DNA from: Eubacteriales bacterium
GTDB taxonomy: Bacteria; Bacillota; Clostridia; Oscillospirales; CAG-272
DNA length: 64,000 nt
Direction: 5' to 3'
Assembly: GCA_045612865.1 (NCBI GenBank)
Contig: JAZKZW010000082.1
Location: 5,135 to 69,134, forward strand
The notes under the pieces were generated by a model. That model was not told the origin of the DNA, did no database searches, and was given only the letters and a program-made list of their open reading frames with translations. Positions 42,198-55,225 of the stretch are shown piece by piece. The first letter of the stretch is position 1, and each line of letters begins with the position of its first letter. A program made the position numbers and the translations under genes.

Positions 42198-42321
42198 AAC
42201 TTTCTATTCCTTTACAAGTTTATATGTAAATTATAACATAAATTTTTTGAATTTTCAACTTAAAACTTCCAAAACCTAAAATTATTTTGAAAATACGAGC
42301 CTTTGCGCCCCGAGCAGATAT

Positions 42322-42350
42322 AAAAAGAAAAAGCCACTTTTCAGTGGCTT
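42322..42350 (-). terminator. rho-independent terminator after tRNA-Cys
   Basis: hairpin AAGCCACT...AGTGGCTT + TTTTTCTTTTT. Confidence 0.55.
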
Positions 42351-42353
42351 GAA

Positions 42354-42429
42354 TGGAGTTGACACTCTGATTCGAACAGAGACCTAGATGCTTTGCAGGC
42401 ACTCACCTTAACCGTTTGGCTATGTCAAC
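42354..42429 (-). tRNA. tRNA-Cys(GCA)
   Basis: cloverleaf built by hand, encoded CCA. Confidence 0.7.
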
Positions 42430-42513
42430 ATAATTTAAAACCGCGCGACACCGTTCGCCGCGCGGTTTATGCAGAAAGGAAGGTAGAAAAATGTTGCCCA
42501 AAATCAGAGGGGC

Positions 42514-42588
42514 TGGAGCAAGTAGTGGGAGCCGAACCCACATCGCCAGTTTGGAAGACTGGAGTAATAGCCGTTATACGATACCTGC
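42514..42588 (-). tRNA. tRNA-Gly(UCC)
   Basis: cloverleaf, loop CTTCCAA, encoded CCA. Confidence 0.7.
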
Positions 42589-42592
42589 AAAT

Positions 42593-42667
42593 TGGAGCTA
42601 GACCTGGGATTCAAACCCAGAACCACCTCATTACAAGTGAGGTGCGCTATCGTTGCGCCAGTCTAGC
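42593..42667 (-). tRNA. tRNA-Thr(UGU)
   Basis: cloverleaf, loop CTTGTAA, encoded CCA. Confidence 0.7.
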
Positions 42668-43359
42668 ATACTAACGCGACTTTAAGATAATCACATAAGA
42701 AAATATATAAGCACCTTAACGAGTCTTCACTCTACATCGTTTCTGAAGTGCGCGATTAACATATATGCACGGGAGGCTGAGCAATGGGTAGCGATCCCAC
42801 GCTTCTCCAATGGCTTAATCTTTTGATCCGTTCCGATAGGAAAACGGAAGATTAAACTTACCATACCCTCGATCAGTACTGAGGGAACTTTCACCGAGCT
42901 TCAGCATTAATTTAATTCCTGTTACTATCATCAAATAATATGTGAAGCTTATTTACAACCCGATACGGCTACTCGCACCAACCTTGCTTGTTATAGTTTG
43001 TTACCAAACATCAACGGGAACGCCTATTTTTGAGATACCTAGTTGATTATTCGCTTCATAACGGTTTCTCACGCCGCCAACTTTAGGTGGTATGCATCAC
43101 TGCAGGGACTCTTCTCGCGCCAAGCTATGATTGTTGTTTACGCTAAATCATCAATATGCACCATTATCCGCAACCCTTATCAGGCATACTCGTTTATTCA
43201 ATATATTCACGAGTTTTACTTACTTTAGAGCAGTATCCCACTCTGTTTCTCTCCCCGCGGATTCGTCCTAGCCATCATGCAAGATGCCTACACTAGGATG
43301 TTAAAGGTTATATATTTTCTTATGCAATTATCAATGAACTTTTGATTTCTTACATATTT
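42668..43359 (-). ncRNA. ~690 nt ORF-free, GC-richer transcribed leader between a consensus promoter and the Thr-Gly-Cys tRNA operon; unknown structured RNA
   Basis: no ORF >60 aa on either strand; promoter at 43360-43388 points into it. Confidence 0.3.
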
Positions 43360-43388
43360 ATTATAACATAAATTTTTTAAGAAATCAA
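43360..43388 (-). promoter_or_regulatory. sigma70-like promoter TTGATT-N17-TATAAT
   Basis: consensus hexamers. Confidence 0.6.
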
Positions 43389-44183
43389 TTAAGAGGTGAG
43401 GCTTTAGGTCAGCCAACCGCACATCTGTTGATTGCTGGAATTTTTGCTCTTCCATTTGTGTGTCTTATAGGTATTGCACCTATTGGTTACCAACTGAGGA
43501 GACACATACCAAATAAACATCTCCATTCATTTTCATCGTACCATCCAGCTTAGAAAATCCTGTCTCTACTGGAACCACTCCTCATCCCTTCGCAACCTCT
43601 AAAAGTAACGCGCTACTTTTTAAGGGCAGTACTAACTGTGAAGTAATCACGCTTTCCTTTACGCGGCATGGTCGCATTTTAGTGCGTTTCGCCTCGGACT
43701 ACCGATGAACATCAATATTTATTTTGTACCGAACCATCTGCCATCTGCGCGTTTAAGCGCCGCTATTGGGGGTTTCGCGAAGAGTTGATAGACTCCGCAT
43801 GACTTCGATTAAGTTCGTAAATGTAAACTACCCACATCCCAATATAATTCCGAGTTAGCTATCACTATTCTGATTTCTCGCATCGTGCCTCGTCGCGCGT
43901 ACGGATTCGCCACTCTTGATACCGTATAGTCACTCGTTGTTTTGCCCCAACTATTTTCATAGATTTTCGAGAGGGCAGATAGCGCTTCGTTGTACATCAA
44001 CGCTCCAGAGTTGCCGTATGGGTTGAGAGGTAATTAGCCTTGGCCCTCTCGCAGTACGCCACTGCGCCTTTACTGTTTCGCTAAAGGTTAACTCTTAAGC
44101 TTTAACGCATCTTAAGTGCGGAGGCTGTCTTCCCGCCCGCCCTATCTCGGGCAGATGATTAAGGATCTAGACAGCAGATCCTA

Positions 44184-44267
44184 TGGTGTCGATTCTGGGA
44201 CTCGAACCCAGACCCTCGAAGGACTAGTTCCTAAGACTAGCGCGGCTGCCAATTACGCCAAACCGAC
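44184..44267 (-). tRNA. tRNA-Leu(UAG), type II
   Basis: acceptor GTCGGTT/AATCGAC, loop CTTAGGA, variable arm, encoded CCA. Confidence 0.6.
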
Positions 44268-44348
44268 ATTCCAGAGGTTATTGATTTAACGGTAATAACC
44301 TAAACCCGTAAGGAAGAGAGGAAAAATTGTGAAAATCAAAACCGTTCG

Positions 44349-52759: not shown

Positions 52760-53066
52760 AGTATTATAATCGCCCTCCGAGGCGCGTTGATCAACTGCCA
52801 TTTTCGCTCGTTACACCGCTGAGTCGCTGGCATCTCTCACCGCGTTCAATCTGTTTGGTTTTTTAACTTACTACGAACTGAGTCTCTGAGTGATTGACAC
52901 CTCTTTTGACTGAAACGGAAAGTTTCTCCAGAACTTACAAGGGAAAGTTTCCATATCGGCACGAAACTTTCAAATCACGCCCTTCACTAGGGTAGTACAG
53001 CCTTAGGCTCATGAACCCTCAGCCGCATGTCTGCCAGCGAGTTTAGGCGGCTGGCGCACCTTTTAA

Positions 53067-53318
53067 TTATTGAATATAATCAGAAAAGTTTACCCAATCT
53101 CCAAGAGGAATTACTACCTTACCAGAGAAGCCATCTTCATCTGCGCCATCATAGAGATCCTCAAGATTGAATACTGCGCCACAACAGGAACAAATTACTT
53201 CGTCATGATAGGCAATTCCAACAAAGAATTGCGGCTCCTTTACTCCATCAGTATCCTCCTCCATGCACTCATAACAGCGAACCATAGTAGGAGTTTCAAA
53301 CCAAAACTGTTCTTCCAT
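53067..53318 (-). CDS. zinc-ribbon small protein
   Basis: 83 aa, CYECMEE...CSCCG. Confidence 0.35.
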   Translation of the reverse strand: MEEQFWFETPTMVRCYECMEEDTDGVKEPQFFVGIAYHDEVICSCCGAVFNLEDLYDGADEDGFSGKVVIPLGDWVNFSDYIQ

Positions 53319-53601
53319 TTTTCTTTTCTCCCTTTCTTTATCTTACATATATATTATATCATATTTTTTTAATAAAATCAATTAAACTTCATGGGGCTTA
53401 ATTGTTTGAACAAAGTCAAAACGTAGTTTAAGAAAGAATAATTCTTGCGCAGAATTAACAACGGTATAATGCTTTACATTATTATCATCAATATACCAAA
53501 CAGCTTGGATTGCAGTTCTCATAACTAACTTCTCCTTTGCTCTTTTTTATTTTGTAATTTATTATAACATAAATTTTTAATAAAATCAATAAAGAAGAAA
53601 A

Positions 53602-53677
53602 TGGCAGGGGAGTAGGGGATCGAACCCTAGACACCTGGTTTTGGAGACCAGTGCTCTGCCAGCTGAGCTACTCCCCA
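53602..53677 (-). tRNA. tRNA-Trp(CCA) with U1-U72 mismatch
   Basis: loop CTCCAAA, encoded CCA. Confidence 0.6.
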
Positions 53678-53680
53678 GTA

Positions 53681-53926
53681 TTACCAAACATCCCACCAAT
53701 ACTCAGAAACTTTACGATAAGAACCTTTAGTGGGCAAGGCTCCTTTGTAACGACGAACTGCGCGATTGCATTTGCGCTTTACAAACTTTGCGCGCCGCGG
53801 CTGATAGTAGCGAATGTATCTACCTTTTTCTTCGTCATACCAGACACCTGCGCCATAATGACGCATAGTTTCATCATAAAGACGCTTATATCTTTGCTTT
53901 GTCTGTTGACTTCTTTTGTATCCCAT
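53681..53926 (-). CDS. small Arg/Lys-rich basic protein
   Basis: 81 aa ORF between tRNAs. Confidence 0.35.
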   Translation of the reverse strand: MGYKRSQQTKQRYKRLYDETMRHYGAGVWYDEEKGRYIRYYQPRRAKFVKRKCNRAVRRYKGALPTKGSYRKVSEYWWDVW

Positions 53927-54007
53927 GGCGCCCTCCTATTTTCTTTGGTAGTATTTATTAAATTTAAGCAAGAACAATTTAATAAAGTTGAGAAAAAAAA
54001 TTTACTT

Positions 54008-54217
54008 CTAATCCTCCATAGAACGACGAATTTGCGCCTTCTCTTTCTTTCGATTATACTTCTTCTTGCTTTCAACGACACGAGTGCGGAGAAAAGCAGC
54101 ATTTTGAATACGCTCTTTTCTGCGCGCTTGAGATTCCTTTTGTTCAATCGACTTCATGCTACTTTTCTCCTTTTGAATAATATTGGTGCGGGCGTCGGGA
54201 CTTGAACCCAGCATCAC
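54008..54217 (-). CDS. small basic protein
   Basis: 69 aa ORF. Confidence 0.3.
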   Translation of the reverse strand: MMLGSSPDARTNIIQKEKSSMKSIEQKESQARRKERIQNAAFLRTRVVESKKKYNRKKEKAQIRRSMED

Positions 54218-54260
54218 GCGATTATAAGTCGCGCGCTCTGACCAATTGAGCTACACCCAC
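54184..54260 (-). tRNA. tRNA-Ile(UAU)
   Basis: loop CTTATAA, stem CGCGA/TCGCG, encoded CCA. Confidence 0.55.
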
Positions 54261-54362
54261 ATAATGGCACTTAAGGTACTTGCCTACCGCACATTGAGGT
54301 TTTTTAACACTTATGGAAGTGCCACCCTGTCGCTGCCTCTTTATTTGCTTCACATCAGCGCC

Positions 54363-54437
54363 TGGCACGGGATAGAGGATTCGAACCTCTGCGAAGACAT
54401 TAGAAGTGTCTGATACTATCCATTATATGAATCCCGT
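54363..54437 (-). tRNA. tRNA-Arg(UCU)
   Basis: loop CTTCTAA, encoded CCA. Confidence 0.65.
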
Positions 54438-54448
54438 ATATTTGGGCG

Positions 54449-55225
54449 TTATAATAACGCCCATTCTTTATCTGTATATTTTTTAATTTCTTTTTTAGTG
54501 CATGGTAAATTTTCAACATTACACCATTTACGGATTGCATTATCGCTAACTCCATATTGGGTAGCGATTTTTGTAAAAGGCAGCGTACGAATTAGTTGTT
54601 TTAATTCTGCGCGATTAGGTCTATTAACGACAGTTCTGCTAGCTATTCTTGCACATTTTTCACATCGTTCAGCTTTAGAAGAGGATATTTCAACTCCGCA
54701 ATCTTTACAATAATAATGCTATTTTATATTTTTTCCTCCACTACCACTTCTAATGGGATAAATTAAAGAATCGTTATGCCAGCTATCTCCACTATTAATG
54801 CCACTAATTAAACGCTATGATACGCCAAACTAATTAGCAATTTCTGTTTGACTCAAAGTGGTATTTTTAAGAAGTTCATAAATTTTCGACACTTCTGTTT
54901 CTGTAAGCTTGGCTCTTAAGCCCTGCGATCCTTGACCGCCTTTTGTTTCATTATATCCTTTTTGTGGATTATAAGAATCAAAATATGCTATCCAATATTT
55001 TTCTCTATCATCCAATTGAGCTTTTGTACATTCCTCCAATATTTGAAAAGAAAAATTATCTAATGAATATTTTCTTATTGCAGAATAAAAATGTCCAAAA
55101 TAGGCATCATTTTTAGGATTAAAAGGTGCGGAACGGTGCTTTCGAAAGCGAGCTTCAATATCAACGCTCTATCCAATATAAACCTTGCCATTAATTTTGT
55201 TTGTAATTTTATAAATTCCTACCAT
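54449..55225 (-). CDS. GIY-YIG homing endonuclease; four in-frame TAG codons, first at 55169-55171 inside the GIYKITNKINGKVYIG[TAG]S motif
   Basis: ATG 55225 with AAAAGGAGGA RBS; 259 codons to TAA with only TAG interruptions; C-terminal zinc finger CKDCG...CEKC. Confidence 0.6.

Follow-up and report, generated by a model that had tools for sequence, protein, structure and literature searches.

The window analysed here, a 64,000-nt stretch of contig JAZKZW010000082.1 that belongs to a large uncultured phage, carries at positions 42300-54450 an island of tRNA genes, promoters, non-coding modules and small genes, and all features of the island lie on the minus strand. ARAGORN called 24 tRNA genes between 42354 and 54437, Rfam models added two with degenerate T-loops, and the intron mode of ARAGORN added a split gene, so that 27 genes occupy 2143 nt, or 17.6% of the island. 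These figures bear out the initial annotation, which had counted at least 25 minus-strand tRNAs or tRNA-like elements and had put the tRNA share at about 20%. One Rfam addition is a tRNA-Asp(GUC) with the anticodon loop CUGUCAC; the other is a tRNA-His by homology, being 93% identical to a gene that ARAGORN calls tRNA-His in L005, one of the viral contigs used here for comparison. As megablast and blastn searches against 50,697 phage records returned tRNA and HNH matches only, no cultured relative was found there. Searches with flanking proteins brought up uncultured viral contigs, 90-140 kb long, that share this architecture (L001 and L004, which are one contig; L002 with L003; L005; L006 with L011; and L007-L010); a 122-aa flanking ORF retrieved no relatives, and the flanking nucleotidyltransferase had no match in metagenomes. 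The elements on which our interpretation is built are the following.

42354-54437, minus strand: tRNA array of 27 genes (24 from ARAGORN; tRNA-Asp 47257-47186 and tRNA-His 48066-47994 from Rfam; split tRNA-Ala 44918-44349)
42331-42350, minus strand: terminator-like hairpin at the low-coordinate end, the only minus-strand one in the island, closing the ROOL-tRNA unit
43344-43395, 45214-45265, 45549-45600, 47417-47468, 50991-51042, 53337-53388 and 53545-53596, minus strand: seven copies of a promoter module of sigma-70-type sequence
42702-43321, minus strand: full-length ROOL RNA (Rfam RF03087, 161.6 bits against a gathering score of 99.1, model positions 1-574, E 3e-34)
47146-46951 (core 47116-46951), minus strand: P motif, about 175-200 nt, five helices including a pseudoknot
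46948-46848, minus strand: Q motif, closed by AAUAGG/CCUAUU, with a GCCAC/GUGG helix in addition
51647-51453, minus strand: R motif, about 150-200 nt, with homologues at L021 12776-12594 and L037 3979-4167

We consider it likely that the island consists of sigma-70-type, tRNA-punctuated operons for structured non-coding RNAs. The conserved modules that are not tRNAs almost all border tRNA genes, either beginning no more than a few bases from the 3' end of one or ending immediately ahead of the 5' end of one. P, Q and R are found again, as cassettes independent of one another, in tRNA arrays of large phage contigs that are otherwise unrelated. The identity of the ROOL RNA and the folds of P and R are established by the comparisons given below. 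In the mechanism that we propose, long precursors would be cut by host tRNA-processing enzymes, with RNase P acting at the 5' ends of the tRNAs and RNase Z, or RNase E plus exonucleases, at their 3' ends, so that the tRNAs would act as punctuation and release the interspersed RNAs as discrete, stable molecules acting in trans during infection.

The promoter module spans 50-80 nt and combines TTGATT or TTGAAA, a 17-nt spacer and TGnTATAAT. The conserved promoters noted in the initial annotation are thus real: seven minus-strand copies, all facing the same direction, lie within the island and one lies just below it. Because at least eight further copies of the module are scattered over the window (those near 548, 22582, 33320, 39718, 41368, 56725, 57771 and 62893 among them), it is a general promoter of the phage and is not specific to the island. 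The phage also encodes a sigma-70-family factor with regions 1.2 to 4 (28216-29151, minus strand).

The first of the spacers listed in the initial annotation, 42668-43359, contains the ROOL RNA. ROOL is an ornate RNA of about 580 nt found in phages and prophages, often near tRNA islands, whose function is unknown; GOLLD is likewise described as a large, ornate phage and prophage RNA of unknown function that is often encoded near tRNA islands, and both have been suggested to be co-transcribed with nearby tRNAs (PMC5737381, PMC12286853). ROOL assembles into a homo-oligomeric nanocage, and cages have been shown for both ROOL and GOLLD (PMC12286853). The copy in the window is preceded by a promoter of its own (-35 to -10 at 43388-43360); downstream of it, after a gap of 34 nt, come tRNA-Thr, tRNA-Gly, tRNA-Cys and the terminator-like hairpin. 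Its context is that of the family, as it adjoins tRNAs in the 27-tRNA island and phage replication genes are present in the window. A ROOL RNA occupies the same position in the IMG/VR relatives L004, L006 and L011 (87-88% identity between the window and L004); it neighbours a split tRNA-Ala in L034 and L036 and lies two genes from a split tRNA in the cultured Enterococcus phage EFP01. No GOLLD match was found in the Rfam search of 41800-55200 at E≤1. A further known RNA class occurs in the same niche: L036, the contig that also has ROOL and a split tRNA-Ala, contains a drum RNA at 3833-3951 within its tRNA array (RF02958, 53.3 bits; gathering score 43). In the window, the ROOL promoter is preceded by a 790-nt non-coding stretch (43396-44183, minus strand), which aligns over its full length to L004 and over 600 nt to L005; the latter contig has no ROOL, and the stretch holds a tRNA remnant and conserved patches.

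The P motif came to light as a block in the largest spacer whose conservation extends to the more distant L005. Scanning with an exact pattern taken from this block yielded 11 metagenome stretches and further viral contigs, and covariance-model searches yielded 18 hits in total at 137-193 bits (the first 15 corresponding to 14 distinct aligned sequences, with three added later). In the alignment of 14 sequences, 91.8% of cells are paired (31-48% when partners are slid) and compensatory change is seen in 15 of the 25 pairs, values that none of 500 shuffles reached. The pseudoknot, which was absent from the search model, covaries as GCGC/GCGC, GCAC/GUGC, GUGC/GCAC and GCGG/CCGC, while the unpaired stretches AAAUAAAGUCCCCA, GGUAAGGACAAGG and GAAAAACC are invariant. 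P occurs once in the window and lies inside a tRNA array in every contig, typically beginning at the 3' end of one tRNA and stopping 5-30 nt before the next; the contigs that carry it share few or no proteins with the window. No Rfam family matched P at E≤10. A sixth helix suggested by RNAalifold (GUCCCC with GG..GGAC) was discarded, as L025, L023 and the second copy in L021 have changes in it that are not compensated. P was also considered as a minimal RNase P RNA on the basis of the short motifs AAAGUCC, GGAGCAA and GGUAAG; this was rejected, as no RNase P model matched at E≤10 and the helix topology differs.

Homologues of Q are present in L001, L002, L021 (two copies), L027, L034 and L036; 93% of the cells in its alignment are paired (24-50% when slid), with three covarying pairs. 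For R, whose pattern had no match in IMG/VR, 95% of cells are paired (37-46% when slid) and 13 of 34 pairs are compensatory across three phages, in which the sequence of the closing stem is wholly different and yet paired in each. No Rfam family matched Q or R in the window scan, and our literature search found no description of P, Q or R. Covariation, together with homologues in unrelated phage contigs, thus supports P, Q and R as candidate new structured RNAs that are not in Rfam 15. The suggestion of a new structured-RNA family made in the initial annotation is supported for these three motifs; the first spacer is the known ROOL.

The other conserved modules and the decayed tRNA genes of the island are as follows.

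49721-49623, minus strand: block A, 99% identical to L001 and 94% to L002, directly 3' of tRNA-Leu(UAA)
48272-48193, minus strand: block B, 98.75% identical to L001, directly 3' of tRNA-Gly(GCC)
53030-52752, minus strand: block C, about 95% identical to L001, directly 5' of the tRNA 52751-52677, with mismatches lacking codon periodicity
47362-47303, minus strand: block D, 57 of 60 positions (95%) the same as in L001, a leader upstream of tRNA-Asp
46592-46473, minus strand: block E, 88% identical to relatives (83% to L002)
46460-46702, minus strand: element E, 76-83% identical to L001, L002 and L017, with a few compensatory pairs
45009-44905, minus strand: block F, 91% identical to L001, a leader upstream of tRNA-Ala (44919-45009)
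47870-47493, minus strand: candidate module S, matching L036 7143-7486 between two tRNAs (nhmmer E 8e-9)
54361-54274, minus strand: element T, the spacer between tRNA-Arg and tRNA-Ile, matching L037 5145-5237, an inter-tRNA interval of an unrelated array (nhmmer E 4e-8)
46334-46274, minus strand: truncated tRNA (acceptor stem and T-arm, no anticodon arm) holding the orphan T-arm 46301-46285
43505-43456, 51400-51326 and about 51695-51650, minus strand: other tRNA remnants

As a neutral baseline, third-codon positions of the SPFH (flotillin-like) gene are about 48% identical to those of the closest contig, whereas blocks A-F, each of which abuts a tRNA gene, are 88-99% identical and ROOL is 87-88% identical. 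Element E is a conserved non-coding block that is probably structured; S, in which 13 of 54 predicted pairs are compensatory in a comparison of two sequences only, T and E are weaker structured-RNA candidates than P, Q and R. Elements A and B have no stable predicted fold, and A is confined to the same three viral contigs. Both reach 99% identity with a relative whose identity is otherwise about 77%, and the tRNA to which each lies directly 3' differs from genome to genome.

One alternative is that the spacers apart from ROOL are non-functional debris, made up of leaders and trailers of tRNA precursors, decayed tRNAs and scars of homing endonucleases. Part of the island DNA does consist of decaying tRNA genes: the remnants 43505-43456 and 51400-51326 match intact tRNAs in relatives, and the truncated tRNA at 46334-46274 lies within a 207-nt insertion that is flanked by a 49-nt direct repeat and is lacking in L001. 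Relative to the closest contig, the island is a mosaic of many cassette-sized insertions and deletions, and most of its unassigned sequence is poorly conserved. Debris would not, however, keep pseudoknots, nor would it account for P, Q and R recurring with compensatory changes in phages that share almost no proteins with that of the window, or for the identity of blocks A-F far above that of synonymous sites; we therefore regard this alternative as unlikely. It is still less probable, in our judgement, that the modules are domains of a few very large GOLLD-like RNAs with embedded tRNAs, such as one of about 700 nt (47146-46460) combining P, Q, a hairpin and E. In favour of this reading, the linker region of GOLLD is reported to contain tRNAs (PMC12286853), P and Q lie side by side both in the window and in L021, and P, Q and E follow one another in the window without an intervening tRNA. 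In most contigs, however, P occurs without Q and with tRNAs tightly on both sides, L001 and L002 have Q and E but no P, the order of the blocks differs in L017, and Rfam gave no GOLLD match. Because P, Q and E appear in differing combinations and orders between contigs, we treat them as separate modules. A reading of the spacers as protein-coding under an alternative genetic code, prompted by a tRNA(CUA) at 22444-22519, is effectively refuted: outside the island, the window is densely filled with minus-strand ORFs under the standard code, spacer mismatches relative to L001 lack the codon periodicity of true ORFs, and no single recoded stop codon opens the rest of the island, as coverage by ORFs of at least 100 codons rises from 21% only to 27%, 36% and 50% when TAG, TGA and TAA, respectively, are read as sense.

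Several observations nevertheless weigh against the interpretation of the island as tRNA-punctuated operons for structured RNAs. Co-transcription and processing are deduced from the sequence alone. About 43% of the island (5.2 kb) is without assignment, and of this portion only 28% falls within well-conserved blocks that the closest relative also has. In exact-pattern searches, P was absent from 185,579 species-representative bacterial and archaeal genomes (GTDB) and present in only a handful of viral contigs. Q and S are based on few sequences, and the count of compensatory pairs in R is somewhat favourable because its structure was derived from the same three sequences. Minimum-free-energy z-scores in sliding windows, finally, show no excess stability of the spacers, which also fits debris, but this test is without power here because ROOL itself scores near zero.

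Phage tRNA islands are usually read as tRNA supplies for codon usage or against host defences, and ROOL and GOLLD as isolated curiosities. The best-supported picture is that the island represents the niche known for ROOL and GOLLD, here with RNA families new to Rfam 15. P, Q and R share that genomic niche and one spacer is a bona fide ROOL, whereas P, Q and R are much smaller (100-200 nt), and have no sequence or structure model in common with these RNAs. This suggests that the niche is much richer than assumed, with one island holding ROOL and several conserved folded RNAs that move as cassettes between unrelated large phages. Our best guess is that ROOL, P, Q and R support the take-over of translation or protect the tRNA pool, the purpose for which the tRNAs themselves are carried. 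P, with its five-helix pseudoknotted fold and invariant unpaired stretches, offers a concrete new target, and punctuation by tRNAs would be a simple and testable logic of maturation. The tRNA cluster of phage T4 reportedly yields two small stable RNAs of unknown function, species 1 and 2, which are processed from the same precursors as the tRNAs. It is likewise, in miniature, a phage tRNA cluster with non-tRNA RNAs and a homing endonuclease, but the island described here is about ten times larger, has a wide variety of RNA modules and includes a tRNA split by an intron; the phage-record searches revealed no similarity in sequence to T4. The T4 homing endonuclease, SegB, is reported to lie inside the cluster (PMC2330249).

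Exactly one tRNA gene of the island contains an intron, of 492 nt.

44918-44881 (exon 1), 44880-44389 (intron) and 44388-44349 (exon 2), minus strand: split tRNA-Ala(UGC) with a G3:U70 pair, from the intron mode of ARAGORN
44847-44404, minus strand: 147-aa PD-(D/E)XK_5 endonuclease ORF within the intron (PF11645, E 7e-22)

The orphan T-arm at 44376-44360 is the 3' half of this gene, the 5' half of which lies 490 nt upstream; exon 1 ends in ...UUUGC and exon 2 starts with AA. We assign the gene to tRNA-Ala(UGC) because of its G3:U70 acceptor, the UGC in its 5' exon and the intact tRNA-Ala with the loop CCUGCAA at the syntenic position in L001; the labels Thr, 'Stop' and SeC given by ARAGORN were dropped, and its many intron-mode calls in relatives that are chimeras of neighbouring tRNAs were ignored. 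The endonuclease matches PF11645, the I-Ssp6803I endonuclease family, with 78.3 bits against a cutoff of 26.1 over profile positions 2-135 of 138. Its exact sequence is not on record, and 173 homologues at E≤1e-10 are present in metagenomes. Every close homologue whose context was examined sits in the same place, and those in L019, L034, L035, L036 and L037 lie in a tRNA-Ala(UGC) with G3:U70. No other tRNA-Ala was called in these arrays (stretches of 5 to 26 tRNA genes), and that the split gene is the only tRNA-Ala in every array examined is one reason to think that the intron must be removed. Removal is also what we infer from the exons, which are intact, with G3:U70 and a perfect cloverleaf, in six diverged examples. 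The nearest homologue in a cultured phage, with 45% identity, is that of EFP01 (KY549443), where it lies in a different tRNA, Asp or Asn, split at about 105242-105777. In T5-like phages and Kuttervirus, more distant homologues occur as free-standing genes that lie between those of tRNAs.

The intron termini are conserved (UUGAYARACUY ... UAAGCAUUGUYGRGUA). The 570-nt precursor is predicted to fold with an intact cloverleaf whose anticodon stem is extended to a 17-bp helix in which the anticodon loop and both intron ends are paired, and with a second helix beyond it that contains the stop codon of the ORF. The resulting rod of roughly 30 bp is conserved (98% paired, compared with 36-45% when slid, with seven compensatory pairs) and brings the two splice junctions together, staggered by 3 bp. 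All five introns aligned share the junctions ...UUGC/UUGA...GUA/AA (...GCA/AA in L019), where the slash marks the junction; this is the only register that gives tRNA-Ala(UGC).

Bacterial tRNA introns are, according to textbooks, group I introns, which follow a 5' exon ending in U and themselves end in G. A group I intron was rejected here, as the junctions C/U...A/A break both rules, a U/G register would give the anticodons UUA or UCA, no internal guide sequence is present, and Intron_gpI had no match at E≤10 on 44330-44940 or at E≤5 on the EFP01 locus. The group I intron of Synechocystis tRNA-fMet encodes an endonuclease of the same Pfam family, I-Ssp6803I (PF11645), and has an anticodon-loop site; the intron in the window differs from it in these same features and in having only 33 + 15 nt outside the ORF. 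Protein-spliced tRNA introns of archaea and eukaryotes likewise lie in the anticodon loop beside the anticodon, with an exon-intron helix presenting the junctions. The archaeal motif consists of two 3-nt bulges at the junctions separated by a 4-bp helix. The window intron is instead placed between positions 36 and 37 rather than 37 and 38, and an archaeal-type bulge-helix-bulge intron was rejected, as the continuous 17-bp helix spans both junctions. Bacteria are not known to have a splicing endonuclease, and no ORF-only phage tRNA intron was found described in the literature. We propose tentatively, as one possibility, that the tRNA-Ala intron represents a class of phage tRNA intron that is no ribozyme and is removed by proteins. 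A double-strand-specific endonuclease, either host RNase III or the PD-(D/E)XK protein of the intron itself, might cut the rod, and the phage RNA ligase might then seal the tRNA-Ala exons. If so, this would be the first known case of protein-dependent tRNA splicing in the bacterial world, and the textbook statement on bacterial tRNA introns would change; EFP01 provides a cultured system with the same endonuclease-in-tRNA arrangement beside ROOL. The ligase in question, encoded at 28124-26919 (minus strand), is of the Rnl type and has a PHA02142 OB domain.

The T-arm-like hairpins that the initial annotation had seen scattered outside complete cloverleafs were confirmed: three perfect T-arms (48680-48664, 46301-46285 and 44376-44360) and degenerate ones lie outside the called tRNAs. 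The first belongs to a tRNA mimic.

48702-48598, minus strand: Y-RNA-like tRNA mimic of 105 nt containing the orphan T-arm 48680-48664

The mimic comprises, in order, an 11-bp closing stem, the T-arm, an acceptor-like stem closed by a five-base loop, and a D-arm; its fold has a z-score of -3.1, and the closing stem and T-arm keep their pairing through compensatory changes in L005. It has the same topology as YrlA, a bacterial Y RNA with a tRNA-like domain, in that a long closing stem takes the place of the anticodon stem. As its score of 22.8 bits against Rfam's YrlA model (RF02553) is below the gathering score of 69, we call it Y-RNA-like and do not count it as a member. A Pfam scan of 30 ORFs from the window, which spans 64 kb of a genome of about 135 kb, gave no TROVE-domain match that would indicate a Ro60/Rsr partner, and a host Rsr is possible. 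The topology of the mimic is permuted and Y-RNA-like, and the element is not a permuted tRNA gene. Of the intron-containing or permuted tRNAs that had been suggested, the island thus holds one intron-containing gene, while permutation is limited to the topology of the mimic.

The statement that the region has almost no credible ORFs does not hold, as six minus-strand ORFs cover 2091 nt (17.2%) of the island. Besides the intron endonuclease, they are the following.

50480-49842, minus strand: HNH homing endonuclease, a gene that the relative L001 lacks
50613-50972, minus strand: conserved 119-aa ORF, mismatch periodicity [29,25,45] relative to L001
53067-53318, minus strand: conserved 83-aa ORF, mismatch periodicity [20,16,39], with a 33% identical homologue in L021
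54157-54008 (49 aa) and 53926-53681 (81 aa), minus strand: two small basic ORFs with mismatch periodicity

We take the 119-, 83-, 81- and 49-aa ORFs to be real genes because their mismatches relative to the closest relative cluster at every third position; the supposed spacer 54183-53678 shows this periodicity ([19,61,24] relative to L001), and true spacers show none. The coding share of the island consists mostly of homing endonucleases and small basic proteins. ROOL accounts for 5.1% of the island, P, Q and R for 4.0%, blocks A-F for 7.0%, promoters for 3.0%, tRNA remnants for 1.9%, the tRNA mimic for 0.9% and intron sequence outside the ORF for 0.4%, which leaves 42.9% without assignment. 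The spacers, with a GC content of 0.42-0.51, are indeed GC-richer than the whole window (0.385) and the ORFs of the island (0.35), but the contrast with coding DNA is only moderate because the value for large ORFs in the rest of the window is as high as 0.42. Among the listed spacers, 48779-49234 in fact holds a tRNA-Ser (49051-48962). The initial observation was therefore partly confirmed, being real but overstated: its alternatives (intron-containing tRNA, permuted tRNA and new RNA family) each account for some of the region, but no single one covers the whole. It missed the ROOL identity of the first spacer, the 17% protein-coding share and the decaying tRNA genes, and the Rfam scan that it had proposed revealed ROOL and two extra tRNAs and no group I intron. 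The island is also a playground of mobile elements, with its HNH and PD-(D/E)XK endonucleases, a GIY-YIG remnant, cassettes gained and lost, and decaying tRNAs. The remnant is a 69-aa GIY-YIG fragment just above the island (54830-55039, minus strand); a GIY-YIG ORF (11070-11813, minus strand) and a NUMOD3 ORF (57839-58519, minus strand) lie elsewhere in the window.

Directly flanking the island is the nucleotidyltransferase gene (55607-56440, minus strand). The window also encodes, on the minus strand, an 838-aa protein with major-vault-protein shoulder and repeat domains (30767-33283; PF11978, E 9e-26) and a 510-aa SPFH/flotillin protein (39756-41288). Families of both kinds form cages or caps, and the presence of vault-type and SPFH genes near the nanocage-forming ROOL is curious.

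Unusual tRNA genes are found in the window and its relatives. The tRNA at 52677-52751 (minus strand) is nearly identical to the tRNA-Lys(UUU) of L001 (13946-14019), but its entire anticodon arm has been replaced, and ARAGORN gives it an 8-nt loop with the four-base anticodon AGUU; it could be an anticodon switch or a frameshift-type tRNA. In L001 (15578-15742) and L002 (14126-14317 and 15883-16036), tRNA-Leu(UAA) and a UUU tRNA carry, between positions 34 and 35 of the anticodon loop, inserts of 77-108 nt that are themselves tRNA-like, with a 7-bp acceptor stem, a T-arm and a CCA end, forming a tRNA inside a tRNA. Removing the inserts restores the 7-nt loops CUUAAAA and CUUUUAA, and cuts by RNase P and 3'-end processing could leave ends that a ligase can join; the tRNA-Leu(UAA) of the window (49817-49725) lacks such an insert. 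The tRNA(CUA) at 22444-22519 (minus strand), which is of the amber-suppressor type, lies outside the island, and the genes of the window read normally under the standard code; similar CUA tRNAs sit inside the tRNA arrays of L021 (13034-13108) and L036 (5554-5645).

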